In this document: positions 20,618 through 61,031 of the stretch, piece after piece
Numbering within the stretch: the stretch's first letter is position 1
Layout: each line of letters begins with the position of its first letter
NCBI RefSeq assembly: GCF_038025025.1
Contig: NW_027117351.1
Location: 124,001 to 188,000, forward strand
Direction: 5' to 3'
Origin: Phyllosticta citribraziliensis
Lineage: Eukaryota
DNA: 64,000 nucleotides
Notes under the pieces: generated by a model
What the model saw: the letters and a program-made list of their open reading frames with translations, nothing else
Database searches by the model: none
Told to the model about the DNA's origin: nothing
Translations under genes and position numbers: made by a program

Positions 20618-20805
20618 GATGGGGTGGGTTGGAGTGGGTTACTGACGCGGTAGTGGTGGTCAACTCCCGCGGCCTTCAAAATCTCAAGGCCAGCGCCGCC
20701 TAATCGGGTCTAGCGTCCTCTAACATCTTTGGAAATTTCCGTCGCCCACGACTGCTCCAAAACAAACCTGTCGCCCACGACTTTTGCTCCTCCACTCGAG
20801 CGGCC
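20618..20805. promoter_or_regulatory. Divergent promoter region MNP1/MDN1 with duplicated 13-bp element
   Basis: 188-nt head-to-head gap; GTCGCCCACGACT occurs at 20741-20753 and 20770-20782. Confidence 0.55.
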
Positions 20806-40712: not shown

Positions 40713-42650
40713 ATGGACACTTCCACGATGACCGGCAATGACATTTCCAGCAAGGTTCAAAGCCAGTCATGCAGCGAGGATTCAACTGAAGTGGCATTGC
40801 AGACGGAAGAAATGTTCGATGAAACATCTAGCCAGGCATCGGACGAGATATCCAGCCAATCATCCGACGAGGCGTTGAGCAGAAGCTCGTCAAGGACGAG
40901 TATGACCATCCATGATGCCGAGGATGAGGCAGAAGATGAAGAAAGTCAGGATTCGGATACGGATTCGGATACGGATTCGGATGGTACCGATTTCGACTAC
41001 TCCTACTACCACGACCGCGACTATGACAGCGAGGAAGAAGGAGAACATTATCGCGTGTACGATGACGACTACGTGGAACCAGAACTGCAGCACCCGCGCT
41101 GCATTTACCAAGACATCCGGTCGCGCTGCCTCGACATCAACCAGCAGAATAAGCTCTCCAGCGCCGCCGGCCTCGAGCTTCACAATCTCATGACCGATGC
41201 CCTCGCCAAAAACAAGATGCTTTTCGAATTCCGGCAGGCTTCACAACCATGCCGCACCCCAGACATGGCACAGGAGCAGTGGGAGCAGCAATTATCGACC
41301 ACGTATCGACGGCAAACCCAACTGCTACTCGAAGCTCTCGAAGCCGACATTGCATACTTCCGCAAAGCCCTCCGCGAAATGGTTCAAGCGTATTTTGAAA
41401 ATTACAATTCGAAAGACCCGCCGAGCACGCACGACTATGAAGAAGAAAGGGAGCGCATACACCACGAGGTCGGCGACACGCGCGCAAACATTCTCGTCGT
41501 CAGGCTCCGCGCTGACCGGCTTTTGGAAAGATTCCTCGATCTTTTCCGCCGCAAAACCCTAGTCAAAGAGGAAGACTGGGCCTGCGTTGATCAGCTCATC
41601 CCCACGTGGCGCACTCCGCATACAAGCGGTGGCAGACTATGTTCCAATGACTGGCCTGAACGGGTAACGCGGACCAACCAGGAGCGGCAAAGGACGGCCA
41701 GCGAGGCTTTTGCGCAATGGGGCTGGGAAAGAGCAAGACGAGTAAGCCGCGGTGTTGAAAGAGGCTGGTTAATGGGCCAGCGATTCATACCACTGGACGA
41801 GGCTTTCGTCGACTCTTTCATTCCCCCCTGTCTCTCGGAGCCCCTTCTCCAACACCTGTTCGGAGGCGCCGCCCCAGACGTGCGCAGCCCGGAGAACATG
41901 CTTCCGGACATTCCACTCGGCGTTCTCACAGGCGTCATGGCACCGGCCATAGCAAACGACGAGGTCCTCGACGCCAAGGGCGACAGAATAGTCATCCCAT
42001 TCGCCAGCAACAGCAGCGACAAGTGGATACACACCTCCCTGGTCAGCGACAACCTACCTTGGCTGTACACAACCGACGCGACCTTTCGCTTGAAGGAGTT
42101 CGGCACGCGCGCGTACCCTCTCAACCCGGACCGCCGCTGCGCTTTCCTCCACCTCCTCATCAACATGTTCCACGTGCGCCGGTGGGAGGAGGAATTGCCC
42201 CCGAACGAGGGGTGGTGGGCGCCGTGGCACGACCACGTCGGCGAGATGATGAAGAGCGAGCGCTGGGGGGCGACAGCATCACGACTACGGCGGTCAACGG
42301 TCCTCCAAATGGCCTCGACCATCGGGCACATCAGAGACTTTGGCGCCGAGTTCAAGGGCGGCATCGAGGAACCCAACGACGCAGGTGCCGACACCGATGC
42401 CGAGCTCGACATGCTCATCACCAACATCGTCGAGGAGCACCTCTTCCCGTCGCCGGCCGTCGTCTTCCCCGACGAGTCCAAGTACGAGCGCCTCGTCTTC
42501 GGCGAGACGGACATCGTGGCGGAGATGCAGCGTCGGAGGGCGCATTTTTGTGCGGCGGGAGCGCCGGGTGCGACCGTCAAGTGTGTTTTTGCTCACGGCA
42601 TGACGACTTACTGGTCCAGGAGGGGTTCGGAGTTGAATGTCCACTGGTAG
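40713..42650 (+). CDS. Orphan hypothetical protein, 645 aa, acidic/Ser-rich N-terminus
   Basis: Long uninterrupted ORF with C/G-ending codon bias and an upstream TATA-like element; no motif I recognise. Confidence 0.8.
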   Translation: MDTSTMTGNDISSKVQSQSCSEDSTEVALQTEEMFDETSSQASDEISSQSSDEALSRSSSRTSMTIHDAEDEAEDEESQDSDTDSDTDSDGTDFDYSYYHDRDYDSEEEGEHYRVYDDDYVEPELQHPRCIYQDIRSRCLDINQQNKLSSAAGLELHNLMTDALAKNKMLFEFRQASQPCRTPDMAQEQWEQQLSTTYRRQTQLLLEALEADIAYFRKALREMVQAYFENYNSKDPPSTHDYEEERERIHHEVGDTRANILVVRLRADRLLERFLDLFRRKTLVKEEDWACVDQLIPTWRTPHTSGGRLCSNDWPERVTRTNQERQRTASEAFAQWGWERARRVSRGVERGWLMGQRFIPLDEAFVDSFIPPCLSEPLLQHLFGGAAPDVRSPENMLPDIPLGVLTGVMAPAIANDEVLDAKGDRIVIPFASNSSDKWIHTSLVSDNLPWLYTTDATFRLKEFGTRAYPLNPDRRCAFLHLLINMFHVRRWEEELPPNEGWWAPWHDHVGEMMKSERWGATASRLRRSTVLQMASTIGHIRDFGAEFKGGIEEPNDAGADTDAELDMLITNIVEEHLFPSPAVVFPDESKYERLVFGETDIVAEMQRRRAHFCAAGAPGATVKCVFAHGMTTYWSRRGSELNVHW

Positions 42651-44152
42651 AATCTGCTTTGAGAGAAATGCTAGCAGCTTTGTGTTTTGCGAACGCCGCG
42701 CCTTGCTCCAGCACAAGTGAAGATTCCTGTGACAGTGGCCGATGGAGAGGGAGGGCAGTTCGATGGTGCCGGTGAGGTATAGACGGAGGGAGTATCAGTG
42801 TGGTCAGTCAGCCCCTCTGGAGGCTGCTTCATTGTTTGTCGTCGCCGCGAGCTAACCACTGTGAGGCGACAAGGCAAACACGCATTTTTGAACTATATAA
42901 TTTTCAAAAGTTGACCTTCTTTCACCGAACCCTCGCTCTTAGCGCCAACGTGAATTTCGTCTATGGACTGCAGCCATATGAGCTAGCACAAGTGCGAGTT
43001 CGAAGCGCGTGGTTCGCAATCTTTTTGCCGAATTTTTTGCCACTTGTCTTTCTTTTTGGGCTTCAGTCTTTTTAACACAAGGAGCGCTTTGGTGAGTGTT
43101 ACGAACTTTCCTAGCTAGAAGTGATTGTCTTGGAATTGCGCAGTGTTCTTACCGCATCTCGACCCATGCTGAAGACACGAGAAGCTTCGTCCGACCACCA
43201 ATTCGTTGCACAACCTTCCAGCTCAGTGGAATGGCACGCTGTGGGAGCGTTCGGCACCTGGTGATACCCTGCTTGGTGTTGAGTCTGCTACATGCCTCTC
43301 TAAACTTGGCTTCGAAGCTATGCGTCGGGCGCTCCCGCCCAGAGCACCGACTTGGGCACTTCTTGCGACATTTGAATTTCCTGACGCCGCCTAAAATTGC
43401 TCGCACTGTCGCGCTATCACAAAATGGAGTACATTCACTGGCCGCACTGGCCGAAAGCATGCAACACATGGTATTGATATTGAGTATCTGCTCACCGATG
43501 GCCGGTCCCTCTCCTTTCCTCCAATTATTTTCCATCGATAATCACATTGTTCTGAGTAACAAATCCAATTCAAAATAATCGTCGGTGGAGGTGGCGGCGG
43601 CTTTGCTTACGGTGTTTGGGCCTTGACGCGGCGGCGACAGCGAGGGCCATAGACATGGATCTGGCGCGCTCACGGGCAGGCTTTTGTAGCGGCAAAAAGA
43701 CATGTCGCATGAGAAGGGTTGCCCTGAAAGCTGCTGGATGCGATGGTGGACGTGATGGGGGGTCCTGGGGCTGCGCGATGGTACTTCAAAGCCCGCAAGG
43801 CATATGTAGGCGCTGGATATTTCCTTTCTGCCTTCATTGTTGATCCGGCCCAAAAAGTCCGCCTACCGGCTTAACACTTTGCTTTGCGCCCTTAGTGTTA
43901 ATCCGGTCAAAAAAGGCCGCACGCCGGCGCGCTGCTGCCCCGACACACTGTATGCGCTGGACCATTGCCCATCTCCGACCCCAGACACAACCCGCCTGGA
44001 TTCGACCTGTCCACCTTCTTCTCTCCAACCTCTCCACATCGTCCTGCCTTTCTTTTCGCATTACCACCACCGTAGGCATTTCAGACTCTGAATGCTCCAG
44101 CACCATTCTCAGAAGAAACGCTCACCACATTTGCAGTGACACGCACCTCGTC

Positions 44153-45636
44153 ATGGCAAGGACCAACAGGAAGGAAGAAGCCCTTCGCCGGCTGCGCGCA
44201 ATCGGCATCGACAACCTCATCGATGACGGTATCAAGCCGCGCGAGCGCCCCGACCCATCGAGGCCCAAACTCAGACTCAAGGTTTTCCACAGAGAGACAC
44301 CAATTCTTGCGCTTGAGGATTACGACAAAAATCTCATCCTGGCCCTGGACGAACTGGTGCAGATGCTCAATGACGACGCTAGAGTCAAGCGGCTGCTGCA
44401 CACGGCAGTGCGCACACGTCACCACAGCCACCTGTCCCACAAGAATGTGCGCGAGATTCTGTTTTCCGATGTCTCCGCTGTCCTCAAAGCCCATCGAGCT
44501 CGTGCAAATCAACTTTCGCGCGAGCGCAGTGCGGAACTTGCGCCACAAGAACAACGCCCGAGCGGGGCTGGAAGACGCCCAGATGCGCTGGATTCTGCGC
44601 ATGCTACGGCTGCAGAGGAGCTGGATGTTGACGACCATGGCGGCTACGACGTCCAAGGCACTGAAAATTTGTTCGATGAGGAAGATATGATGCAGGATGC
44701 CGATGAATATGGCGGCTATGCCGATGTCCAAGACAATGGAAATGTGCACAATGAGGAAGAGATGGCGCAGGATTCTGAAGAACATGGCGGCTATTCTGAC
44801 CTCGAAGACACTGCAAATGTTTATGATGAGGAAGAGGTGGTACAAGTTGGTGGGCAATGTGATCCAGGCACGCTCGAAGAAAGTCAGGGGGAATACCACG
44901 ACACAGTAGACGCTCATAACGAGCCATGCACGTCCGATGTCAACGACAGCGGCAACGAGGACCACGTGGTGACGATGGACGCCCAAGACAAGCCAGGCGT
45001 GACAACAGTGTTGACTACCTTCATCAACGTTGAGGAACCAGAGCCTGCTGTCAAGTACACAGACATCCAAGCCTTCATGGCGAGGGAGGGAGTTACGTGG
45101 CCCGACGTCTTCGGGTTTCCAGAAGACAACTCCAACTCCGACTATCGCTTGGACTTCGTCGCCATTTCTGTCCCTGACGAGGACGACCCGGCGGCCGAGG
45201 CTGCTTACAAGCACACTGAGTTGCTCGCCCAAAAGCTACAGCATCTTAGCAGTCACGACTCCCTTGCAGAAAGGATGGACTGGCCTATACCCCAGGTACC
45301 GGAGTCGCACTTAGAGGCTGCGTTCAACGAGGCCAAGGATGCGGCGCGCCAGGCCATGCACGAGGCTATGCGAGAGAACGGTAGCAGGGAAGCCTGCGAA
45401 AAGTCGAACGAGTGTATGATTGCCTATGACAGGGCCGAATTCGAGTGGCATCGCAACATGACGGCCCGCCTGGTGCAGATGGAGCAGTAAGTTGCCGGTT
45501 TCTTCCACCTCACCACTTTATCGCTATGATACTGATACTGACTGCTTGCGTTTTGTACAGCAAATGCGCTCATTCAGAGCACGGCTTTGTCCTTTCGCCA
45601 AAATGGAGGGAGCTTTACGAGTCTGTCCTTCCCTGA
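44153..45636 (+). CDS. Tandem-array family member 1 (~469 aa), unknown function
   Basis: Begins MARTNRKEEALRRLRAIGIDNLIDDGIKPR. Phase-2 intron 45487-45560 (GTAAGT...TACTGAC...CAG); 76-nt exon 2 encodes HKCAHSEHGFVLSPKWRELYESVLP*. Confidence 0.85.
44630..44845 (+). repeat. Three imperfect ~72-75-nt coding tandem repeats in member 1
   Basis: DDHGGY-DVQGTENLFDEEDMMQDA / DEYGGYADVQDNGNVHNEEEMAQDS / EEHGGYSDLEDTANVYDEEEVVQ. Confidence 0.85.
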
Positions 45637-47478
45637 GCCCCTGACTCAGCGCGGCTCTCCGAGTCCTTCATGCTACGCTCTGCAGAGAATGCAAGGGATG
45701 GACGTTTGGGCTCACAGGGAGCATTCATGCGCGTCAGACTACATGTACAGCAACGGAGGATTCGTACGCCGGAAGATGGGACATGGAAACTTGTGCTTGG
45801 AAGGCGAGCGGCGGTCAAGGATTGGACCAGAATTACAAAACAAAAGAGCAAAGGGACTTTGTCCGTGATACAAGGTCCTACATGCCTTTCTAGAAGAAAC
45901 TCGCGATCACAAAGCGCAGTACCCCTAGTAAATTGATTCCTTGTTGCTTTGACACTTTGCACTTCCAGTGATTGGGCTGTTTGATTACTAGCTCCACTTG
46001 TTCCTTTAGACTTGCGAAGTTTCTATCGTAAACCGTGGCATGCAATGGGCATCTTTCGCCCGTCTTCTTTTGGCAAGTCTTCCCGTCACTTCAGGTCGAA
46101 CGTTCGAAATCGAATGTCCCCCAGCATTCGCTTTGTCATGTGTTCCGCAATCGAAAGCTTGCGGCGGGGGTAGGCCTATCCATGAGGAGGATAAGGTAGT
46201 TTTGTAACTCGGCCGCGGGGATCGAGGGGCTTCCGGAAGACTCACTGTTTGTTTCCAGGTGGAATAACACCAAAGCTGCTCGCCCTCTTTGTCTCACCAT
46301 TCTGATCTCGATGCTTCCAGTCAATTGCTTATCATATCTAAGCAGCAGGACCTCATCGACCACTCCGGTCATTGCGGCTTCGTGCAGTCCCGCAATTGGC
46401 GTTGGTACCGCGCCTCCTACCGGCCAATCCGTAGCAGCAGTACATGGAAAGCTCTCAATGGAGCCTCGAATATGGTTTCGAGCTCTTTCATCTTACTTTA
46501 TCAGCTTCTCGTTGCTGAGCTGGAAGAGCATGGAACAACGAAGTCGTCATGGTGGGTCGAGGGGCTTCTGGAACACTGACCAAATTCAAGACTACGACAA
46601 AAGAGAAACATTAACCTCCTCAAGCATTTGTTTCTCTAATGCAAAAGGGTCGGCTTGATGTAGAGCGCAAAACGCTAAGGGACAAAAAATAAAGAACGAA
46701 AGGGCAAAAAGGAAATGCAGACCACGCAGTTCAAACGCGCTTTGGGACGCTTGAAGTTCAGCAGGTTTCCACACCGCCATGCCAGGTTTTCACACCAGCT
46801 CCGATGGCTCACTTAGTACGTGCCACCCTACGCGGTCTTTGGGATAAGACTCGTATTTTTGGTTTACAAACCCCCCGAAAAGGGGTCGGCCCACCATTAG
46901 GAATTTGCGCCATTGGTGTTTAGCTGCTTGAATGTTGACTTTCCCTGCTTTTTTGGACTGCTGAGAAATTCCTGCGTACATCGTACAGATACTTGCACAG
47001 CACGTTCCATCTAAGCGGTGCAGCCTCCATGGACGCGTCGTGGCACAGAGGTTTACTCAACACGTCCTGCTTGACGCGTCCCACTCAGCATGCCGTCTAA
47101 AGTTACATTTCGCTGAACGAGACGCGCTTCGCAATTTGCTGGGTGTGTGGTACCAAATGAAGATGTTTAGCCCAAATCAAATGCCTTCATAAATCGATGA
47201 TCAGTAGCCGGGAGCGATTCTTCGCCTGAGCAGGCAGCAAGAAGCAGTAATCCAGCTGCCAGTGCAACTGCGGGAAGAAAATTCCCCATCAGCCCTCGAT
47301 CTTGACTTTTCTTCCGCACCTGGTCCGTCGCCTTTTCAACTTCAACCAACCTCGCAGACCTTACGCGTCCCGACCACCTGCATCGCCTTTCATTTGCCCT
47401 TGCATCACCTCTTACATCCAAAAGTCTACGCGTAAGTCTGTTCCTCATTGCCTCTCGTGCTGCCCTGCTGTCTGAAGC

Positions 47479-48797
47479 ATGAAAATGACCTCGATTGCAG
47501 CGACAGACCACGCCGCGATGCCAAACTTGCCGGGGGCTGCGCGGGCGTCAGCTCTACGTCGACTCAACGCAGTGGGAATCGACAACCTGATTGACGACAG
47601 CATCAAGCCACGCCAGCGTTTGCAGACGGCGGCGCGACGCATAAGGGTCAAGCTGTCCCAACCCGACGCACCCGTTATTTCGATGGACGAATATGAGGAA
47701 GATTTGATTTTCATCCTGGATATACTGGCGCAGACCACCATGGACTACGACCAGGTCAAACAAGATCTGGTAGTCGAAGTGCGCTCGCGCCAACTCTCTT
47801 CCGGGCTCAACCCGTTCAAGAACGTCCGCGAGCTTCTGGTGTCGGATGTCAAAGAGGTGCTCAGGACTTACCGGGGCTGGGAAGGCCAGCCCAATGGCAC
47901 TCGAAAGAAGCGTAAAAGTCTGGAAAACGCGGCATCATCCTCTCGAAGATTGCGCCCACGGCACCGGTCAAGCCCTTCAGAGAAGGGAAAGGGCGAGAAC
48001 GATGCTGAACTTGACGAAATCGACATCCAGGAGATAGCTGAGGTCCAGAATAAGCCAAATGAGCCCAATGGAACCCCCGCTCTTCACGAGCATGGCCAAA
48101 CGCAGAACGAGCCCGACGAGTTGATGAGGGTCACCGTCTTCTATCCTATTCGCGAGACAGCGGACGCCCAGGATGACGACACGTCCCTTTCTCTCGAGAA
48201 TGTTCTGGGCCTTGCCAATAGCGCGGGCAATATGCTACATCGTACCGCCGCCAACACACGCATCAACTTCAAAGTCCTACCAGTCCAGTCCACCGACGCC
48301 GCTGCCGCCGACGCCGCATTTGGAAAAGCCGATAAACTCGTCAAGTCGCTGACACATCTTCAAAACTTAGTCCCGACGACCGGAGAGGTCATGCAGGTGC
48401 CTACGCGCAAAAGTCCTGAAGTACACTTGATGGCGGCCGTGTCTGAGGCCTGGGACACAGCGCGCCAGGCTATGCATGAGGCGGCGGCACTGAACCATCA
48501 GGACAATGATGCGGAGCTGGACCGGGCCAGAGAGGCGCACGCACAGTATGAGCGTGCCGAGTTCGAGTGGCGTCGTAACATGATGGCGCGGCTGGCACAG
48601 ATGCAGCTGTAAGTTGGTCATCAATTTGCCTCGTCCCCTTCCGTTTGCCTTACAACCGCTGCCGTCTCCGCCGCCAGCACCACTTCTGGCGAATGTGTGC
48701 TTACTATTTGCTTCTTTGTAGCAACAATGCGAATGCAACGAGCGGCCTTGTTCTTTCGCCCAAGCTCAAGGAGCTTTTCGAGCCCGTCCTGCTCTGA
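47479..48797 (+). CDS. Tandem-array family member 2 (~401 aa), unknown function
   Basis: ALRRLNAVGIDNLIDDSIKPR...KNVRELLVSDV and C-terminal YERAEFEWRRNMMARL. Intron 48609-48721; 76-nt exon 2 encodes LNNANATSGLVLSPKLKELFEPVLL*. Confidence 0.85.
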
Positions 48798-49879
48798 GCC
48801 CTTGCCCTGCCGACGTCTCTGAATATTCCTTGTGTTCAAGAGGAAAGGAAAAACATACTGTACGCTCACGAAGTACTCATGCGCATCTTACCAGAGGTAC
48901 GAGAGTAAGATCACAACGTGTCGACATAGCAAGTAAGCAAGCAGCAAACAAAGTGCACCGAAGGAAGCAGCAGTAACGATGGAATGGGCCGGAAGCAACA
49001 AAGAAAATTGTCAAGAGGGGTTTGCTTGTTCACAATGACATCATGGGCAGGGGAAAACAAAGGAATATGGCGAGGGGCTTTGATTGTGCACAATGGAATT
49101 GCAGTGGGGGCTACGATTTGCCCTCTTCTTTGATGGGGTCTTTGCTATGGTTCAGCTAGGTAGACACCTCACGATCCAAATCAAATCTTCTTTCACAAAG
49201 TCTCGAGACACTCATTGTGTTGCTTTCCGAAAGCTTATCAAGGTTGTACTTGCGTTTGGATGCTTCTAAGCGTGCCCCCTGAGCACCTAGATGTCTGGAC
49301 ACCTACTTCACTCCTTTGCACTCTGTAGCCTGTATGTGTCCTGCTACCCAAAGCCTCGGAAGAGATTCCTTTTTTGCGCCGTGCTTGTCCTTCAACTCCT
49401 GCCTCCCATACTGCATCTTCTCCCCCTTGTCTTTTGTGTCGGAATATCGCAGCAGGCTGTTGAAAGTACTCAGTGGCTCACCAGTGCCGCCGAATTCAAC
49501 AATCCCTGAAGTTCTTTTGCTGCAAAGACGAGAGAGATTAAAACATCGTAGTCGTTTTTGTGAAAGCCAACGCTACATTGTTCGACAGACGTAATTCAAA
49601 TCAACCGTATGGCCAGACCTGCAAGCCCGAGGTTTCCTGCGGTCTCTTACTTGACTTTAGCCTCCTTTTCAAACGATATCTCGGAAAATATTGCGCTGGA
49701 CTTACTCTTGGCTCGCAGTCCACGTTGGACTGCTCACAAGGACATCCAACCTCCCGCGCCCTCATGGTCTAGAAGCGCTTCTCAAAGAGCCTCAACATCC
49801 GCACCCGCAGAACCATACAGTTCCTCCTCCAGCAGAGCATCGACCAACCTTCAATGCAAAAGTGACAAGATGGGTACAA

Positions 49880-50347
49880 TCAGAGCAAGCGCCCCCGAGC
49901 CCGCATCACTTTCCGCGGGCGCTGGCACGCGTGCAAACGCGGCTCATCTCCCTCATCGCACCTGCGCTTCCGCTCCGCCGCCCTCGCAAAATTATGACGA
50001 CCAATCACGGCACCCAAATCCCTCGCCATGACCTCACGCACCCTCTGCTGCGGGTGCCGCGGATCTTCCTGCCTGGCGCGCACCTCGGCGAGGACCTGCC
50101 GCTTCAATTCCACCGAGTCGCGCATGATGCGGTGCAGGGTGTCCAGCTGGTTGATCAGCTTCGGCGGGTACGCCTCCAGCAGCAGGATGCCAGTTTCCTT
50201 GTCGTCGAGCAGGGCTTTCTTGTTTGGCCGCGCGGCGTTGGGGGCATGGCGCGGTTGGATGCTGCTGTCGAGGAGGTTTTCGATGCCGATGGCGCAGATG
50301 CGGGCCAGGGCGTCTGCGAGCTGGCGCTGCTTTTGGAGGGCTGTCAT
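49880..50347 (-). CDS. Tandem-array family member 3 (155 aa), N-domain only (truncated gene or pseudogene)
   Basis: ALARICAIGIENLLDSSIQPR...ETGILLLEAYP...RVREVMARDLGAVI, then a basic patch and a stop. No C-terminal exon found downstream. Confidence 0.7.
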   Translation of the reverse strand: MTALQKQRQLADALARICAIGIENLLDSSIQPRHAPNAARPNKKALLDDKETGILLLEAYPPKLINQLDTLHRIMRDSVELKRQVLAEVRARQEDPRHPQQRVREVMARDLGAVIGRHNFARAAERKRRCDEGDEPRLHACQRPRKVMRARGRLL

Positions 50348-51129
50348 GGTGGGTGGAGGACGCGGCTTTTGGTTTGTCAGTGAAGTGTTTGGCATTTGCT
50401 GGAAGATTTGGGGGGCGGGCGAGAGAATGGGAGGACTCGCCCGGGCGAAGAGGTGAATGGCACAAACTGGAGACGGCGGAAGGGTTCCAATTTCCAAATG
50501 GTCGAGGTCGCGAGACGTTGGCTTGGTCAAAGTGTGGGTTTGATGTTGGAGGCCGGCGGAGCAAATGTCAACAAGTTTTCGGCCTCGAGAATCAAATCCA
50601 TTTTGACACAGCTTACTGGGGGCTCAATTTTCACACCGATTGTGTTAACTGTTGCCCTCCCAAAGAGACTGCTCTGATCCTATCACCCCATCCATCTGTA
50701 ACCAAGTCAAAGCCCTCCAAAAGCTGAAGTACTCCCATGATGAGCTTCACCACCTTGTACAGCCGCTGAAAGCGTGAAGTCCCCGCCAAGTCTCTCTCCG
50801 GCCTCATACCGGTCTCCCTTCTAGCTGACTCTCCCGAAATGGTGTATCCGAAACCCGGAGCCCATTGAAATTGCTCACACGCGTAGCTTGTCCATTTCCA
50901 GTGGCCGGAGTCCTCGTCTTGAATGCTCCCTGTGATCCACCGCTTGCCCCTTTCGCGTAGGAGAGGAGAATTCGGTGCTGAATGTACGAGTTTGGAGGAT
51001 GTAGAGGCACAAAGTAAGACTCTCTGACGTGTCTGCAATGAATATCAGCGCTGTTGGTGTACGATTTTGGGGTGGAGCACGTACTTTTGGAAAGAAGGCG
51101 TGAACTTTTCACAGGTTCTTGTGATAATC

Positions 51130-52110
51130 TCACTGATGCTCAGCATTTCCAGTGTCTGGATCCTGACTGCCAGAGCAACAAGGCAGCGGAGATTCGAAGA
51201 TCTGCCTGAGCTTTTCGCTGAGGACGAGTCCCGTTTCCACGTTCAACTTCTTGCTTCATTCATATATTAGCCTCGCACTGCAATTGGATTTGTGCCTTCT
51301 GTCTCACCATTCGTAAATAGCCTGGTCGGCAAGATTTCTGAACATGTAGTGCTTGTAAGCATGGGCTTGCAGCCGTCGGAAGTCGTCAAAGCCCGCGTCT
51401 TCGTATCCCATGAAATGGAAGTCCACGAAGGCACGCATGAACAAGCGGAAAAGCTCGTTGCGGTCTTGTTCACCGCAGAAGAGCGCAGCAATGTTGGTGC
51501 CTGGGGTAGTGGCTGTGTTCCTCATCTGTTTCAGCAACACCAAGATTTCTGACAGGGTTATTGGGAGATCTCCGAAACGGCTGACGATCCTGGGACCATT
51601 GAACGCTCCAATCTGACCATCTCCATTCATGACAGTGCCTTCTCCATCGGGACCAGGCTCCTTGAGATCCACCTTTTTCTTGGGACGGACAGGAAGGGAA
51701 AATTCAGCCGCGCGTTTCCTGCTGTCGTTGCTTGGCGCCTCGCGGCTGAGCATGGTCTTGGCCTTGCCAAAGTCTCTCAGAAGGACTTGGATGACCAAAG
51801 AGACCTGGCCGCTGGAGCTCTTGCGTTTATTGACGGCGGCTCTCAGAGTAGCTGTGGCTTTGTCGACGGAGCCCGCCTGCTTCACGAGGCTGTGGATGGC
51901 GGAGAGTATGCCTTGCGGATATTCGCGTGGCTCGAGGATGCGCGTGTCAGGTTGTCCGTAGCAGAGGAAGCACTTGGGACTGGAGACGTCTGGAGGTTGG
52001 CGCGGGCGAAAGTCCTCGTCCAAGAACGTCGCGATATCGATGGTGTCGGCTTGAATCTGCTGCAAGACACGATCCACCTCGGTATGGTCAGACGCCATTG
52101 ATGGATCCAT
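51130..52110 (-). CDS. Tandem-array family member 4 (~308 aa), unknown function
   Basis: DIATFLDEDFRPRQPP...TRILEPREYP. Intron 51254-51307; exon 2 encodes CKKLNVETGLVLSEKLRQIFESPLPCCSGSQDPDTGNAEHQ*. Confidence 0.83.
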
Positions 52111-53111
52111 GTGTGCTGGATAGATGCGAGAGTGTGAGTACGCTGGTTGGCGAAAACTTCAGAGGTTGGGTGAGCGTGGGCGCAAAATGCCGAGCTGTCT
52201 GGCGACGGCCGAGCACCGGAGCAGGCGGTGGTGATGGAGGATAGGGAGGCCTGTGCGCCGGTTCGCTTCCGGTGCAGGTGACGTCAGTGGTGATTGCCAG
52301 GGTACACCTACCTGGTACCTAGGCAGTTAGTAGTCACGTCTTTGCGCGTGTCCTCTCCTACTGTAGACAACAAGGAATCACGCTCTGCACCTTCTTCAGG
52401 TAGTCACCTGACAGTCACTCGACATTGGAGCCACTCCCATCGGCCCCCTCAGAAACCTGTCATCGCCTTTTCTCTAGTTAGATCTCCCGTGCGTTTCTGC
52501 TTCGATCCGGCTCGCACACCGAAATTGCTACTCTACAGGTCACCTCGAAGGAACCCCTCCTACCAACAGACCATCCCAATTTTCACCAAAGCAAAGACCA
52601 TCGCCTCCTCTCCACTTCTCCAAGCCGAATCTCTCCATTCTGACCAACACAAAATCCAAATACCAAGCGGGCTCCTGCTGAAGCGTAGACCCAATTTCAT
52701 CTTGACCTCTTTGTCCACGAATGCTCCCTCAACGCCGACATGCTTCTTTCCTGGCGTTGTACGGCCTTTCAAAGCGTGGAGCCTCCGCAAAATATCTCTC
52801 CAGTCTCGTATCGATCCCTCTATCAGCTAATCTCCCAACCTTTGTACACCTGTAGCTCAGAGTTCGATTGTGCCGTTGTTGACTGCTCCTTGTGCGCCAC
52901 CACATGGCTCGTTTCGGGCTGGAGAGGGGGTTTTGGTGCCAAATTTATGATTAAAAGGATGAAAGGCTTCCATGGTGTATCTAGACTGAAGGTCAGCGCT
53001 GGTTCTGGACGAATTAGTGGTGTAGGAGCGTACTGGCTCCTAAAGTAGTCTAGAGGAGTCCGGAAACGTTTGCCCAAAGTCCGAAACTTCTCGTAGGGTC
53101 TCATTATTTCC

Positions 53112-54032
53112 TCACTGGGGCTTAATTTGACTGCTCTCTTTGGCCTGATTGTTGGCACAGCACTGGAGTGGGGTTTCGAAGATGTTCCGGAGCGGTTTGC
53201 TGAGGACCAGTCCTGTTTCCTCACTCAATTTCTTGCTTTTTTGAATCATTAGCCGCTTCCTCTGGCAGAAGTGCTATCCTTTGACTTACTAGAGCTTGGA
53301 GGCCTCGTTAGCAAAGAGTTTGAACTGCCAATGCTTACGAGAGTGTGCCTCAGTGCCTTGCCGAATACCGAATTCCTCATCCTGAATGCTTGAGGCCCGA
53401 AGGATGGTCGTGCAGTTTATATGGAGAGCGTAAAGCTCAGATTCGCTCTGCTCACTGTTGAAACGCCTGGCAACCTCAGGTCTCGAGGCAGGGCCCTTCT
53501 GCAAGTTGCTCATTATCCTCAGTGTTTTCGCAAGCGCTTCTGGGACATCTTCCATGCGCTTGACGACGCTGGGACAACTCTTTTTGCCGTTGGGAGTGGA
53601 CTCGTTCAGAGCTCTTTGCTTTTGAGGGTGCATTGCTGGCGGCGGGGATTCGGGGGTTGGTTTATCATTGTCGGCAGTTGTAGCGTCATTGAGACTCTTC
53701 ATTGCATTTTTGAAGTCCCTTGGCAAGACCTGTATGTATAAAGAACCCTGCGTCACCAAGCTCTTGCGGTATGCAACCGCAGTCCTGAGAGCCGCCTGGG
53801 CTGCGGGAACAGTACCAGCTTTCTCCACAAGCTCGAGAACACTGAGCAGAGTATCCGTGGGGTATTCACGTGGTTCAAGAATGCGCGTGAGAGGTCGATC
53901 CGAGCGCGCCCAGTGGAAGCATTTGGCGGGATTTGGCAGCTGGCGGGGTCGGAAACCCTCGTCCAAGAATGTTGCGACGTCCTGCAAGATTTCGTCGGCA
54001 GCGGCGTGGTCAGAGGCCGCTGGGATATCCAT
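53112..54032 (-). CDS. Tandem-array family member 5 (~288 aa), unknown function
   Basis: DVATFLDEGFRPRQLP...TRILEPREYP. Intron 53236-53289; exon 2 encodes YKKLSEETGLVLSKPLRNIFETPLQCCANNQAKESSQIKPQ*. Confidence 0.83.
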
Positions 54033-55289
54033 GAGAACGGGCGGCGATTCGGGGTTGCTTGAAGGGTGTGGCCAGGGTGTTGGCTGAAGGTGACAAGAGA
54101 GATGAATTCGCGGTGGGCGTAGGCGGACGCACGATGAGTTGGGATGGCGTGACGGGAGGTACAGTTAGGTACGGTACGTTGTGGAAATGCGGGGTGACAA
54201 TTGCAAGAGATCCGGAGCGTGGTGGGCGTGAGGTGGGCGCAACACCGGACCAGGGCTCAGTTCAGACCGGACAGCGATAGACTTGTGTGCCTAACTTCCA
54301 AGGCAAACATAAAAATATGATCTATATAATGTGTGCAAACTACCATGTTTTCAACGACGATGGGCTTCTACGTCTGCAAAGTTGCGGTAGCGTACTGGTT
54401 GCTTGGAGAGCTCCGTAACCAGTGGCTGCCTTGTAGGAGAGCTCCGCAAGGCAGGAGCCCGGGGTCCAAGTCCCTTACTCGTCAATGCTGGCCAGCATTC
54501 TTTTTGACTTTTTTAACCTCTAAACATCGCTTCGACTCGCTTGTCAAAGCGGGCGAGAGGTGGTGGGTTAGAGTTTGGACAGTCTTGACACTCACCCTGT
54601 GTCAGAATCACTGCGGGCTTATGTGCTGGTGTTCCATTTTGCCAGGTATACTGTTAGCGGTTGTCATCCATTCACTTGGACGTCTTCTGCGTGAAGCTGG
54701 ACAAGGAAACCTGACCGTTGCGGAGCTGCTCGCCAACTCATTGCCAAGCCGTATCTCTGCCAAGTAAACAACACGTAGTGTCCCAAAAGCCTGCTGACAA
54801 TTTATAGCTAGCAGGCCGCGGTGACTTCACAGTCACCTATCGTCGGAGCCACTCCCCCCAGACACTGTTAAACACCCATCAACTGCTTTCTCTTTCGGCG
54901 CTCTACAGCCGTCTTTCTTCGACCACCAAGCTGAAAACCACACAAAACTGACCAAAGAGTCCAAGTATTCCCCGTCTCAAGGTCAGCGCCATCATAAAGT
55001 CCCTCAATCCCTTCTTCGGGCCGCATTTCTTAGCAGGCCGCCTCCTGAAGTCTAGGCCTGCTTCCGTCTTGACCGCTCTGCCCATGAATGCTCCCGCAAC
55101 GCCGGCATGCTTCTTTCTCGGCGTCATAAGGGAACAAGACAAGCCAGCATGACAGGGTGGGATGGCTAGGAGCGAGCCTTCGCAAACCAATCTCAAGACA
55201 TTCGTGGAGGAATCATTAGTCGTTTTCATGAGCAAAGATGCCGAATATTGGGCCAACCTCTTCATTTCGCGGCTCGAAGCTTGCAAGTT

Positions 55290-56322
55290 TCAAGAAGCGT
55301 TGTCGAGCGCACGCGTGGTGCCAGATTTGCCGGCCTTTTCCTCGCCAGCCTTTGCCTCATCATCATAGTCCTCGTCTTCTTTCGTACAGCACGTCATAGG
55401 GCTCAAGAACAGATCTTTCAGCTCGCCACTGATTGTGAGACCCGTCCTGGCATGCAGGCCTTCGCTTTTGGATGCCAGCAGGGTCAGAGCATAGAAGGGC
55501 AAAGAGAAGAGCTCACTAGATGCGCGCAGCAAGCGTGGAAAGCACATGGAAGCGCCAATGCTTGTGCGCATGGAGCGTCGACCTCTCCTTCTCCATAACT
55601 TGCAGTACTTCGTCGTCGTAGTTGGGGTCTGTGAAAGGCGGGAGATGTTCCACGGTGTATCGGAAAGTACTCATCGCAATGGTGAAGTCTGAGAAAGCTG
55701 CGAGCTCGTTGTCCCGGACCTGGACAGGAAAGTCTGGCTTCCCCGGCGCGCTCTTGATCTGGCCGAGAGACTTGAGCAGATGACGAAGCTCGACGGGGAG
55801 CCTTGCAAGGTTGTGGACGACTTTGGGCTTGACGGCCTTGGGCTCAGACGGCCGCTGATGCTTCGGAGTCGGCTCGTCTGGTGCTGGAGACGCGGCGTCG
55901 CGTTTGTTGTTACCGTCGTTATCCTTGTTGCGCAAGGATGCGCCACCAAGGATGACGATGGCGCGATTCAGGTCGTGGGGAAGTAATTCTACTACCAGGC
56001 GACTAGGTCCTCGATTGTTGGACTTGCGTTTTCTGATAGCCTCGCGTACAGCGGTCTGCGCCTTGCGGAGGTCGCCGTTGGTGTGCTCCACCAAAGCGGC
56101 AACGCCCCGGATGACCCCGTGGGGATATGCGTAATCAAAGGGATTGAGAATGCGAGTTGGGCGCTGAGTGTCTAGCAGCTTGCGCTCAGAATTGGTAGGA
56201 TCGGGCGGTTGGCGTGGCTTGACATCTTCGTCAAAGAACGAGGTTAGGTCGACACCTTGCTCTGCGAGGTACTGGCGCACCTCGGCGATGGGCAACTCAG
56301 GAATGCTCTGCGGGGAAGACAT
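55290..56322 (-). CDS. Tandem-array family member 6 (~326 aa), unknown function
   Basis: DLTSFFDEDVKPRQPP...TRILNPFDYAYP. Intron 55465-55516; exon 2 encodes YEGLHARTGLTISGELKDLFLSPMTCCTKEDEDY... An alternative upstream ATG lies at 56400. Confidence 0.83.
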
Positions 56323-57819
56323 GGCTTGGGCTTGACGACTTGAGGTCAGCGGCTCTGCGAAAGCAAAAAAGGAAGAGGTCAAACTACCTGGGCCAGACAT
56401 GCTGCGTTGCGGCCGTCCGTTGCGGGTGTGACGTTTACGCGACGTCGCGACGTGACAAAATAGCACGCCAGTGACAGGACCTGGAAGATTGACGGGCTGT
56501 TTAATGATGGGCGATTTCAGAGAGTGACGAATCCTATTGCAAGGTCAGTTGGGCGGACGGTGGTGCCGGAATAATTGCAACTGAACACCGACTTCCGGTC
56601 GAGCCTCTGGCGAGACTTACCGACGCTGAGAGTCCAAAAAAGCAAAAAAGGATGCTGGCCACCATCGACAACTGTGGGGTTTGACCCACGGGACGCGCTG
56701 GATCTGGGGGAGAGCGAGATCTTTGATACCCCCATTTCCAACTAGACCAGTCGTCCAGTAAAACCTTGTGTACTGGCGGGGGTCTGTCCGGCGTTGTCTT
56801 GGAAGATTGGACAGTTTGTTTACATTATATACCCCACTCTCTGCTTTTCTGACTTCGCAGTATATTCCAGTCTGGTGGGCCCTCTTGCAGTGTTGCACTT
56901 ACTCGCGGTGCTCTAGAGGCCGAGCACTCATCGTCGTAGCCTCAATTTACATCGACGCTTCTTCGCAAGTGGTGTTTCGCCTACAACCGCCGAATCTCAC
57001 ACCTCCAGTGCAATTATTCGCACGCGAGAAATTCTGGAGCCGGCTTGACGTGAAACTCAAACCCCCAGCGCGACTGCAGCATTGTTTGGCGTAAACGGTG
57101 CCCAGCGCTTCTCTTATATCATATCTTGACGCAAGCATCGCAGGTTACTCGCTGCCGTCTCTCGGAACAGTCGGTGGTGAGCTCTGTGGGTTGTCTTGAA
57201 AAATAGGAGCACTGTATGGTCGGCCTATCAACAGCAGCACATTCTTGGTCTTTCCATCGGCGGAGTCTGCGAAAGACGGAGAAGCTCGCTCGTCGTGGGC
57301 CGCCGAGAGGCTCTCTTAGACGACTTGGTGATGACGACGAAGCGTGGAAGGATAAGACAGCGGGAAGAGGGTGTTAATTCTGGTCGTAGAACTTGAGCAG
57401 CACGCGATGGAGACGATCCATCGACGTGCTCTGCCCGAAGAATTTTACTGCTTGACCAAACACAATTTTTGCCTTGGAAATCCCTCACGCTTCTCGACCT
57501 TTCCAGAACCCTGGCTTTTTTTGTCAAACAAGTGAAGTCTTCGTGACAGCGGAAGAAAATAAAGAAAGATTTGGAAACTATTTTGATGAGGGCTGATTCT
57601 ACATTGTGATTCAGCCTAGTGTTGGGGTTTCTAGTCTTGAGGTGTGGGCCCGGCTCCGCAATCTATCTAGCACAAACGGGAGAGCCGATGAGGGCACAGC
57701 CTATGGACGCCTGGAGCCTTGAAGGAGGCGACAACGTTGAAGGCACGAAATTGTCCAGGATGTAAGGGAAGGTGATATCATGAGACATCTTGACCGAGCG
57801 TGCGGCGCTCGAGGAGCAT

Positions 57820-58894
57820 TCAGGACGGGACGGACGTGAAGAGCTCCTTGAGCTCGTCGAGAATCGTGATGTCGACCTTCTCATGAAGCTCGCGACTATT
57901 CAACAGGTTAGCACGATTACAAGGCAGCTGCAGGACAAACTTACTAATGTTTGGCAACCCTTTGGGCGAGCAGATTGCGCTTGATGAGGGCGTTGACGTG
58001 CTCCTGCTTGCGTGCACAACGCTCCGCCTGGTCATGCGCCGCCTCGGAGCGCGCATAATCTTCAGCAGCCTTGGTGGCTTGAAGAATCTTGGTGAGCTCG
58101 TTCAAAGTAAGCTTGCCCTCGAGGTCGGGATAAGACTCGGGCGTGGCTTGAAGATCTTCCATATCGTGAAGGCTGCTCAAGTCCTCGGCGAAAAATCGCG
58201 GCAGGCCAGCAAGCATATCCGTGATCGAAGGGCAAGGGCGGTCAATGTCGATGGCGGCAAGCTGTGTCTCGAGAGCGACAGCTGATGCGGCTTGGTTCTC
58301 ATCTTCGTTGGTGTGCGCCATCTCCTTGTCATCGTCCACCTCGTGCTTCATGGAAAGGTTCCACCTCTGGAGATTGACCGGATCCTGAACATTGAGGCGA
58401 TTAACTTGACGTTCCAGTCTCTGCGGGCGCATCTGGCGCTTGGAGCGAGGGGTCTCCTCTGCATCCGAGAGACGCTCATCGGCAGTGCGCTTGCGTCCTG
58501 AAACGCTCGAGTTGCCATGAAGATATCCACCGATGACCTGTCCAAAGTCCTTCTCGATGACTTCCTTGATTTTAGAGATCATCCCGCCCATGGCCCTCCT
58601 TCGCTGGACTGCATCGAGCAGGCTGGCCTTCACATCTTGCGGAGTCTTGTTCTTGCACTTTGCAATGTGCACGAGCTTGTCCAGAAAAACGACGACGCTG
58701 GCTGGGTATTCGCGTAACTCAAGAATGCGAGTTTCATGCTCTGAAATACGCAGCCTGTGCTGAGGTTTGCGGGGGTTGGATGGGGCGCGTGGCTGGATCG
58801 ATGGGTCGAGTATTGTGTCGATGCTTAGATCTTTCAGGTTCGCCAGCGCCGCGTCGACCTGAGATTGTGGCGGCGGCTGCTTTGACTTCGCCAT
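57820..58894 (-). CDS. Tandem-array family member 7 (~341 aa), unknown function
   Basis: ALANLKDLSIDTILDPSIQPR...ETRILELREYP. Intron 57896-57944 (GTAAGT...GCTAAC...TAG); 76-nt exon 2 encodes YRELHEKVDITILDELKELFTSVPS*. Confidence 0.85.
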
Positions 58895-59200
58895 GTTGCG
58901 TGTTGCTGGTGACGCGTTGAGGTTGTGGTAAAGATTGGCGTTGAGTAGCGATCAGAAGAGATTGGAAGATTGGGCGCGTAGTCTGGCAGAGACGCAGGGT
59001 GATATGAGGAGAGGAGCGGCGTGGGCGGAACGTGGCGTGCCGGAGGTGGTGTTGGCCGCAGGAAGAGAAAGGTCGCCTGCAGATGCCTCAGGCAAAGCAA
59101 ACCAGCGGACCTGGGATTGACAGAACAGTGAACAGCGAAGCAGGAACTCGACAACGGACTTGATTCTCGTGCTGGCCCTCCTTGCCCTTGCATCTCAGCA

Positions 59201-60466
59201 CTAGGAAAGCCTTTCTCTTACTGAAGCAACAATGTCACTCAGGCCTTTCAGACGCTCTTCTCGATTCTCGCCCAAATACAATGCAGCCACCGGCCAAGCG
59301 TGTATTGAACCTTCTTCTTCGTGCAACTTGACGCGTGCGCCAGCGCTCCCGAGGAGTGCTATCAGGTCACGAATTTCCGGGCCAAAGACCTCCTCCTTGC
59401 CAAACAAAATTACCCAGCCATGAGCGGGGCTCGCTCTCAGCCATCGCCGAAGATCCTTCTCTTTACCTGGAGACACCATAGGATCGTCGATCGAGATTTT
59501 CGTGCCAGCGTATTGTCGCCCGTAGAGATGAAGAGTTTCAGCATTCAGGTAGTCGCTGCTGGTGTCGCGGTCCTTTTCAGACACGAGCGTGACCCAAGGA
59601 GAAATCAGAGTGGCCAAGCCTGGCAATTGTGCCTGATGTTGAGGATGGTCCGCCAAATAGAGGAGGAGGCTCAAAATCAAAGTTCCACCAGCAGAGTCCC
59701 CGCCGACGCAAACCCGAAATGGATTCTTGACGACAGAGAGAACGTGTTCGTAGCCAGCGAATGCTTCTTGAATCTGCGTAGGGTAGACGGCATCCGGGAC
59801 CAACGTGTACTCTAGAGCAAACAATGCAGGATTCTTGAAGCCTGCTTCTTTGAGCAAAGCTACCCATGCGAGCAGGAACTCCATGTAAAAGTAGCTCGAA
59901 CCCATGGCAAAACCGCCTCCTGCGAGACGTCAGCTTCATCTTTGGCTCTAGGAAAGATGATTACCATGGAGGTAGAAAATTACTACGTCAGGCTCGGCAG
60001 TCTCGTCGACGGTCAACCAAACGCCCGAAAACCTCTTCTCTTTCACTTCACGCCATGCGATGGGCGAGCGAAGGTAGCCATGTCTCAGCATCCGCCATCT
60101 CAGGAAAGGAAAAGAGACGGGTTTTGAAAAGAATACACGACCGATAGGCGCAGGCATAAAGGCGAAAGCGTATCGAACATATCGTATGACAAAGTCCTGA
60201 AACGGGGTGGCCCTCTGGACGAAAGGGGACCTGGACCGGAGGGGCGTCAAATATCGCTCTCGAATGAATTGGTATGGTACAATGATGGCTGTCTTCAATC
60301 AACTTCTCATGGTCTAGACTGGGGTGGGGCATGAAGTACCCAGGTGTGGAATAGCAGGCAAAAGCCAGGCAGCAAGGTCGAAAATACCAACCTCGAGTAG
60401 AAGTTGGGGCGCGAGAAAGATCAAAAACACGAGGCAATCGAGATAGGAGATTTGACTGAGAATCAT
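59201..60466 (-). CDS. Alpha/beta hydrolase, HSL-like (Say1/steryl acetyl hydrolase-like) with N-terminal hydrophobic segment
   Basis: FYLH|GGGFAMG spans intron 59920-59964; nucleophile motif GGDSAGG, LISPW and HAWP are present. First intron at 60289-60339. Confidence 0.9.
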
Positions 60467-61031
60467 GTTGTTTACATGGAAGGATGTGAGAAGAAGCGCG
60501 ATTCAACAAGAGTTGAAGTCGAAAGAAGCGCAGGGCGGATCAACGTTTGTGACGCTGGCTGGCCGCTAGAATGAAACGAAGGAATTTGAAAGCCGGCTCC
60601 CGAGTGGTCCAGATTGAGCCTTTTTGTCCAATACCGGAATGAGTCTACGGATGCAAACGATTGGCGGAGGAAGGGAGTTTGTTGTTGGGCATGGGATGAG
60701 GTGAGGTTGACCAGTCACGTGGATGCGCCGGGGCCCGAGAAACGTGACCAGGAAATCTGCAGCGCCAACCCAACCTTTAGCGCACTACTCTACCATCACC
60801 GTCAAACCAGACAACTGCAGGACACGACAGTAGGGTGGCGCGCCCTTCTCTCCTCGCTCTCAACCGACCACATACCCTGCGCCCTCGCTTTGCTTCGATT
60901 GCTCCACCTGTCTCAATGCGCTGAGCCTTCCCCGATTTCCTGGCTGTCTGGCGACACCTTGCGCGATTCCAGATACGAGCCGTACACGCGCGACTCTCGC
61001 CACGCGCAGCTCGACTACGCGTCAGGAAACC

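Follow-up and report, generated by a model that had tools for sequence, protein, structure and literature searches.

A tandem array of seven diverged paralogues from an unclassified, probably nuclear protein family in Phyllosticta citribraziliensis

A 64,000 nt stretch of the Phyllosticta citribraziliensis genome (assembly GCF_038025025.1, contig NW_027117351.1, positions 124,001 to 188,000; hereafter the window, with positions numbered from its first letter) contains a tandem array of seven protein coding genes, termed m1 to m7, the products of which have in common an N-terminal domain of around 115 aa (the N-domain). Both the protein family and the domain are new, in the sense of classification only. 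The explanation favoured here, to which we give about an even chance of being correct, is that the array represents an old tandem expansion of soluble, non-enzymatic and probably nuclear modular proteins, the conserved parts of which would serve in docking whilst the variable parts would diversify their output.

The seven members correspond to ATG-initiated open reading frames (ORFs) in the standard code, 171-445 codons in length, at the positions and on the strands originally predicted (Table 1); m1 and m2 lie on the forward strand and m3 to m7 on the reverse strand, such that the two groups converge near 49 kb. The proposal that all are paralogues sharing an N-terminal domain is borne out by an all-against-all BLASTP comparison, in which 17 of the 21 pairs matched at E<1e-3, with m4 and m5 scoring 138 bits and m1 and m2 scoring 90 and 74 bits in two blocks. 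The two groups are bridged by m7, which scores 59 bits against each of m3 and m4 and 51 against m1, and the four pairs having no significant match (m2-m5, m2-m6, m3-m5 and m3-m6) are all joined via other members. Seven columns (D, P, R, Y, L, R and D) are invariant across the first 120 residues or so of the seven-member alignment, and identity to m1 ranges from 20% to 38% among the other members. When the window was divided into 1271 six-frame ORF pieces and searched with a profile of 53 N-domain sequences, exactly seven reached E<=1e-25, these being the array members alone; the next piece had an E value of 1.6. Likewise, 74 collected proteins compared with the window by tblastn gave no match outside 44-59 kb. 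The copy number in the window is confirmed by these searches as exactly seven.

Six of the genes proved to be longer than originally described. A helical C-terminal region (the C-module) had been recognised in six members, which holds with m3 as the one lacking it, but the ends of the ORFs had been taken as the ends of the genes: m1, m2, m4, m5, m6 and m7 in fact continue via a phase-2 intron of 49-113 nt, the splice donor of which (GTAAGT or GTGAG) makes the apparent stop codon. The last exon, 76-175 nt long, encodes a short, amphipathic conserved tail, GLVLS..LK.LF, or GLVLS..LK.LF..VL in its fuller form. The tails of m1, m2 and m7 are GFVLSPKWRELYESVLP, GLVLSPKLKELFEPVLL and DITILDELKELFTSVPS respectively, those of m4 and m5 begin GLVLSEKLRQIFESPLPCC and GLVLSKPLRNIFETPLQCC, and the predicted tail of m6 begins GLTISGELKDLFLSPMTCC. 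The tail pattern occurs six times in the six-frame translation of the window, on each occasion just downstream of a member and on the same strand, and in none of 30 shuffles; as the pattern was written from these same six tails, the count shows only the absence of further copies. The spliced translations are identical to deposited models for m1 (P0012), m2 (P0008), m4 (the first 304 aa of P0011), m5 (P0014) and m7 (P0009, 100% identical, deposited as 'uncharacterized protein J3D65DRAFT_149278 [Phyllosticta citribraziliensis]'). The deposited model of m6, P0013, uses the 5' intron at 56331-56387 and has no tail, the tail exon being omitted from P0016 and P0040 as well.

The m1 protein begins with the N-domain (aa 1-119), followed by a linker that is very acidic and contains three 25-aa repeats, the helical C-region and the tail GFVLSPKWRELY. 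Its linker is encoded in part by three tandem 75-nt repeats (44647-44871), the second and third of which are 79% and 60% identical to the first; the acidic 25-aa repeats that they encode contain Tyr, Phe and Met.

By its sequence m3 is a truncated, N-domain-only member, ending after the basic patch RKRR and having no linker, recognisable C-module or tail. The truncation is probably shared with a relative, since P0015, which is 88% identical to m3, ends at the same residues. A search for a C-module relic downstream of m3 produced only chance-level matches, the best having an E value of 0.065, and a faint WRRN..LRLFE string lies in frame directly after the m3 stop codon. The 532-aa deposited model P0011 joins m4 to m3 across their spacer (49880-52110), whilst the m3-like P0015 is modelled alone in the relative; P0011 is likely to be a merged gene model.

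Contigs from four coded sequencing runs (among them X1, X2 and X4) were aligned to positions 42000-61000. One X1 contig of 5843 nt lies on 54552-60288 with no mismatches and covers both m6 and m7 fully, skipping 56331-56387, 56533-56619, 57896-57944, 59919-59963 and 60289-60339. All five gaps have CT..AC ends, equivalent to GT..AG introns on the minus strand, and on account of these intron-less joints X1 was taken to be cDNA and hence derived from RNA. The first gap confirms the 5' intron of m6, and the third likewise confirms the tail intron of m7, which is absent from X4 as well as X1 contigs. The predicted tail intron of m6 (55465-55516) is unspliced in the single X1 contig covering it. X1 also has small contigs over parts of m2 (47569-47933) and m5 (53729-54071), whilst m1 and m4 have none and m3 only a 46-nt piece (50249-50295), a distribution that says nothing of expression.

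The truncation of m3, the fusion of m4 and m3 in P0011 and the tail exons missing from P0013, P0016 and P0040 could together be read as signs that these are decaying or non-functional ORFs, or artefacts of annotation. Such a reading is barely credible, as it has to contend with seven open frames of the lengths given above, residues invariant across old paralogues, a confidently predicted fold, a conserved intron position, intron-less contigs and orthologues at 85-88% identity; it is already contradicted for six of the members.

The family has few relatives. A profile of the seven N-domains, searched against 1,835,955,588 representative proteins, found 47 at E<=1e-3, 31 at E<=1e-10 and seven at E<=1e-30. 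Family relatives with named sources are from P. capitalensis (P0032), P. citrichinensis (P0010, 85% identical to m7), Elsinoe australis, E. fawcettii, Myriangium duriaei, 'Dothideomycetes sp. NU457' and 'Dothideomycetidae sp. 11243', in addition to a further P. citribraziliensis relative (P0041) encoded elsewhere on the same 808-kb contig. Elsinoe, Myriangium and Phyllosticta are genera of the Dothideomycetes, and as far as the named relatives show, the family identified by these profile matches is restricted to this class. The family is taxonomically narrow (47 of 1.84 billion representatives), but it is not strictly specific to this lineage in the sense of the species, as relatives exist in other Dothideomycetes such as Elsinoe and Myriangium. 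One Elsinoe relative bears the label 'Start control protein cdc10', for which this analysis provides no support whatsoever. Two relatives have two N-domains per chain, P0017 (residues 44-169 and 220-343) and P0042 (3-123 and, weakly, 255-341); either the two domains genuinely occur in tandem in these proteins or models of neighbouring paralogues have been merged.

A tree was calculated from 53 N-domain rows, leaving out P0001-P0007 as duplicates of the window ORFs, P0039, P0040, P0049 and P0052 as truncated proteins, and any match covering fewer than 80 profile positions. Two subfamilies had been perceived by eye, one of m4, m5 and m6 and the other of m1, m2, m3 and m7. The former was recovered together with P0016, P0019 and P0023 (support 100/97), but the latter was not. 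Only m1 and m2 group robustly, m1 with P0021, P0024 and P0025 and m2 with P0026 and P0018 (94/92); m3 forms a lineage of its own with P0015 (100/99), placed beside the m1/m2 clade with weak support (85/19); and m7, which groups with P0010 (100/97) and then P0020 (95/85), lies weakly beside the m4/m5/m6 clade (81/96). Each member or member pair thus has its own closest relatives, be they orthologues or further paralogues, among representatives less than 50% identical, and hence the duplications that gave rise to the array are old.

The array is also present in a sister species. Run X2 derives from organism B, the contigs of which have around 92-97% DNA identity to the array and cover 29 of the 30 bins into which the array region was divided; as X2 contigs lie over all seven member positions (four of the contigs are given in Table 1), and one spans both m4 and m5, the array is collinear in the sister species where contigs span it. 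Divergence is unevenly distributed along m7. Between m7 and its P. citrichinensis equivalent, 108 of 117 residues of the N-domain (92%) and 109 of 119 residues of the C-module (92%) are identical, as against 74 of 96 in the linker (77%), where eight further positions are gapped. Five X2 differences were listed within the coding sequence of m7, a tiny sample pre-selected by the alignment tool; four of them are synonymous, and the fifth (T148A) matches the P. citrichinensis protein. Under the explanation favoured here, the N-domain, basic patch, C-module and tail are constrained whilst the linkers run free.

These results bear on the interpretation first placed on the array, in which strong divergence with intact frames was thought to betray genetic conflict, the genes being meiotic drivers or suppressors, allorecognition factors, or elements of chromatin or transposon defence diversifying in an arms race. 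The step from a diverged, intact array to conflict is not upheld, and we consider this explanation unlikely. The divergence on which it was based is real (20-38% identity to m1 with all frames intact), and the fast linkers with indels between sister species, the single truncated member and the narrow distribution of the family would all accord with it. Against this, no HET, NACHT/NB-ARC, HeLo, kinase or nuclease family was found by Pfam at E<=1 in the members or among the families listed for their relatives at E<=10, and hydropathy showed no membrane features in the members; the duplications are old, each member or pair having relatives of its own; X2 contigs cover 29 of 30 bins, one spanning two genes; the folded parts are about 92% conserved between species, with four of the five listed m7 coding differences synonymous; intron-less contigs extend over m6 and m7 in a run of unspecified growth stage; and there is no transposon or AT-rich context of the kind left by repeat-induced point mutation, the GC content being 0.52-0.55. 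The Spok, wtf and HET/NLR genes are, like the array, multi-copy, diverged and lineage-restricted. However, none of the domains of Spok or HET/NLR proteins occurs in the array proteins, the array is collinear in a sister species, and wtf proteins have several transmembrane helices whilst the array proteins have none (highest 19-residue hydropathy means of 0.71-1.47).

The N-domain is predicted to fold with confidence. When m7 was modelled by AlphaFold2 with 47 aligned relatives, residues 10-125 or so had a pLDDT of 95-98, the linker fell below 50, and the C-module (residues 224-337) was helical with a pLDDT of about 55-82; the N-domain modelled alone had a pLDDT of 88.6 and a pTM of 0.79. In the model of the domain alone, helices lie at residues 10-21, 25-28, 65-80, 85-101 and 114-126, and a long ordered loop (29-58) carries the invariant P-R. 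Its sequence is characterised by the motifs D..[IF].PR, [ED]T.IL...EYP, V..R and REV...D. A two-copy m7 complex prediction, made without controls, returned a score of 0.00, which is evidence neither for nor against self-association.

As originally judged, no named domain is recognisable. None of the seven members matched a Pfam family at the gathering cut-off, the sub-threshold matches being noise at E>=0.06, and the 47 relatives, searched at E<=10, had weak matches to 43 families, each of the 25 listed being matched by a single relative only. Foldseek found nothing in the PDB at E<=1e-3 with either the full m7 model or the N-domain model, and the ESM Atlas contained no usable match to the whole of m7 or to residues 1-130. 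A profile search of PDB sequences gave a best E value of 0.021, to FAF1, which lay in the linker, and no DnaD or Pol alpha match. The 290 stretches of metagenome contigs matched by an alignment of the m1/m2 type included none that was confirmed, and a full-text literature search turned up no publication on this family in the parts of the texts seen.

Structural comparison of the N-domain with 48,161 representative chains by VIA-align produced just two at Z>=5, the DnaD-like 2i5u_A (Z 5.7, rmsd 3.3, 74 aligned) and the FtsH/Ycf2 AAA+ lid 8xkv_A (Z 5.6, rmsd 3.3, 77 aligned); by the program's own statement, Z below 8 is ordinary for helical models. Realigned Foldseek candidates, themselves at E>=0.6, were proteasomal Rpt and FtsH lids with Z 4.3-5.2 (5.2 for 5ln3_I), whilst the full m7 model found generic helical hairpins on residues 223-341, the best at Z 6.5. 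The modelled N-domain may tentatively be described as a small helical bundle of AAA+-lid-like arrangement, which is a description of shape and not of relationship.

Resemblances of this sort might indicate that the array encodes fast-evolving parts of a core chromosome machine involved in replication, the kinetochore or cohesion, with the N-domain a docking bundle as in AAA+ lids, DnaD and the N terminus of the Pol alpha B-subunit. This we regard as doubtful. It draws on the weak likenesses to 2i5u_A (Z 5.7), the FtsH/Ycf2 lid (5.6), the Pol alpha p68 N-domain (4.7) and the Rpt lids (about 5), and on the P0053-like branch of the family, which is short and well conserved in Elsinoe, Myriangium and other Dothideomycetes, as might be expected had the ancestral form a conserved role in the cell. 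However, these Z values are within the stated noise for helical models, nothing was significant by Foldseek, no solved chain was linked by sequence (the best, FAF1, had an E value of 0.021 and lay in the linker), and core machines rarely tolerate seven diverged paralogues. In the comparison with the AAA+ lids of Rpt1-6/PAN, FtsH and Ycf2, size and the arrangement of helices are similar and about 72-77 of around 75 lid residues align with residues 18-129 of the N-domain (Z 4.3-5.6, rmsd 3.2-3.6 Å), but at 6-17% identity; the array domain starts no more than 30 residues from the N terminus with no P-loop core before it, no AAA Pfam match was found in the seven members or among the 25 families listed for relatives, and the extended loop of around 30 residues (m7 aa ~29-58) has no counterpart in the lids. 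Likewise, DnaD-like 2i5u_A and the Pol alpha B-subunit N-domain (2keb, 4e2i and 8b9a_B) are both small helical interaction bundles, the latter aligning over 71-73 residues at Z 4.0-4.7, but neither match is significant; identity is 8-10%, there is no sequence or Pfam match, and the protein context is different.

In line with the original observation of neither a signal peptide nor an enzyme motif, no member has an enzyme Pfam domain. The highest 19-residue hydropathy mean was 0.71-1.47 across the seven proteins, the usual Kyte-Doolittle threshold for a membrane segment being around 1.6; with no hydrophobic stretch in any of them, neither a signal peptide nor a membrane helix is indicated, the former as judged from hydropathy. 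The N-domain is instead followed by a basic patch. Of 63 family proteins, 50 have a basic cluster in the interval from -10 to +70 residues relative to the end of the domain, compared with 26.6 expected from shuffles, and in many relatives the patch reads KRK.RADSP, thereby including a Ser-Pro site. Patterns resembling a nuclear localisation signal (NLS), sought using mono- and bipartite consensus sequences, occur in the patch of three of the seven members: the bipartite KKRK..RRLR of m2 and RKR..KKK of m4, and the RKRR of m3. The patch originally noted after the N-domain is therefore a family-wide feature, but a post-domain NLS pattern was found in these three array members only. A basic patch throughout the family fits a nuclear protein, and the family proteins are probably nuclear.

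The same patches, along with disordered regions, a narrow distribution and a plant-associated host fungus, are what might be expected of unconventionally secreted effectors targeting the host nucleus. This is very unlikely: there is no N-terminal hydrophobic signal, the proteins (247-469 aa) are not of the small cysteine-rich kind, the array lies among housekeeping-type genes, and relatives are found in several Dothideomycete orders.

Under the explanation that we favour, a full member would consist of the N-domain, a basic NLS-like patch, a fast-changing disordered linker, a helical C-module and a tail encoded by a mini-exon. The N-domain and tail would dock the proteins to one or more shared nuclear partners, whilst the divergent linkers and C-modules would give each paralogue its own output. 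Such paralogues would be adaptors or co-regulators that have undergone sub- or neo-functionalisation, as opposed to enzymes, toxins or secreted factors. Retention of the last intron would stop translation at once, yielding a tail-less form. In layout, and by analogy only, this resembles the TLO/Med2 family of Candida albicans, a lineage-specific, multi-copy family with a conserved N-terminal docking domain of around 100 aa, a variable remainder and subtelomeric copies; the array proteins, however, have no Med2 Pfam match, and their genes form an internal tandem array.

A number of observations weigh against this explanation. The docking role is purely our inference, and the fold searches give no significant relative pointing to function. 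The evidence for a nuclear location consists of sequence patterns, with m1 and m5 matching neither of the NLS patterns used, m7 matching only with a longer spacer and m6 matching inside the N-domain; among 500 shuffles preserving composition, 16-127 contained a bipartite match. The charge of the N-domain is not uniform, its pI ranging from 6.1 to 10.4. As the linkers extend from very acidic in m1, the post-domain part of which has a pI of 4.2, to basic in m5 and m6, no single activation-domain account would suit them all. The designation of X1 as RNA is a guess by the tool, backed by the intron-less joints only, and contigs cannot give expression levels.

Two bolder proposals, even taken jointly, are rather doubtful: that the N-domain and tail form a new, Dothideomycete-born nuclear regulatory module, with seven combinatorial adaptors switched by retention or splicing of the last intron, or that the array constitutes an intragenomic-conflict locus of a novel type, unlike known drive or incompatibility genes. 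The former would involve the contrast between the tail introns, spliced in m7 and unspliced in one m6 contig.

Orphan families and expansions are common in fungal genomes, and the array shows no new mechanism. A domain that is confidently foldable, yet has no Pfam model or significant match to a solved structure, lies on unclassified ground, and defining the family would allow dozens of 'hypothetical proteins' to be annotated in a class to which many crop pathogens and endophytes belong. The array also offers a tractable case of the divergence of old tandem paralogues, with conserved putative docking parts and free-running linkers.

Table 1. Array members, sister-species contigs and neighbouring features of the window. 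Extents of members include tail exons; the ORF column gives the uninterrupted frame.
Feature	Extent	Strand	ORF	Details
m1	44153-45636	+	44153-45490	469 aa; exon 44153-45486, phase-2 intron 45487-45560, tail exon 45561-45636
m2	47479-48797	+	47479-48612	399 aa, annotated start 47485; exon to 48608, phase-2 intron 48609-48721, tail exon 48722-48797
m3	49880-50395	-	49880-50395	171-aa ORF; N-domain and basic patch RKRR only
m4	51130-52110	-	51304-52110	304 aa, annotated start 52098 (ORF start 52110); exon to 51308, phase-2 intron 51254-51307, tail exon 51130-51253
m5	53112-54032	-	53289-54032	288 aa; exon 53290-54032, phase-2 intron 53236-53289, tail exon 53112-53235
m6	55290-56400	-	55516-56400	5' intron 56331-56387; predicted phase-2 intron 55465-55516, tail exon 55290-55464
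m7	57820-58894	-	57944-58894	341 aa; exon 57945-58894, phase-2 intron 57896-57944, tail exon 57820-57895
X2 contig over m2	46828-48588			100 changed letters, 21 gaps
X2 contig spanning m4 and m5	51176-54382			93 changed letters, 49 gaps
X2 contig over m6	54476-56236			124 changed letters, 52 gaps
X2 contig over 3' part of m7	56611-58134			123 changed letters, 21 gaps
Conserved non-coding block	52674-52836			m5-m4 spacer; halves recur at 55041-55124 (80%) and 50755-50835 (73%)
Midasin/Rea1	20704-35271	+		two long open frames (2420 and 2434 codons); AAA_5 and midasin lid domains
GH88-like ORF, weak				upstream of the array
Metallophosphoesterase	37943-38833			upstream flank
Orphan ORF	40713-42650	+		645 aa, directly upstream; acidic Ser/Asp-rich N terminus; no Pfam family
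Abhydrolase_3/Say1-like gene	59201-59905			downstream flank

The duplicated unit extended beyond the coding sequences. The m6-m5, m5-m4 and m4-m3 spacers contain blocks of 80-96 nt that are 73-80% identical and thus more conserved than much of the coding sequence, and hence intergenic DNA was included in the duplications. The blocks have no consistent reading frame, and the small ORFs within them lack Pfam matches; they could be regulatory elements or untranslated exons. The metallophosphoesterase and Abhydrolase_3 genes flank the array as previously described, and no transposase was found in the intervening ORFs. Six small ORFs, five between members and one just upstream, had neither a Pfam match nor any sign of a transposase; Rfam was without a match across 42-61 kb, and no AT-rich block interrupts the array.

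The 3' part of the orphan ORF directly upstream, which is unrelated to the array family, has contigs from X1 and X4 (42000-42845). Three further segments are covered by contigs in an unusual manner. Between m1 and m2, contigs of all four runs, at high depth in X1, have the same differences over around 180 nt (46699-46882), and at least some continue into unlike sequence on both sides; this segment, which has no Rfam match at E<=1, probably represents a copy, with the element or small gene itself lying elsewhere. An X4 contig with a depth of around 399 matches only 200 nt of the m2 C-module (48385-48585), with mostly G>A differences and unlike flanks, which suggests a diverged partial copy of the module elsewhere in the genome of that organism. 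Lastly, in the m5-m6 spacer (54402-54505), a high-depth X1 contig continues into unlike sequence and X2 has a strand-switch joint; this is possibly another dispersed element.

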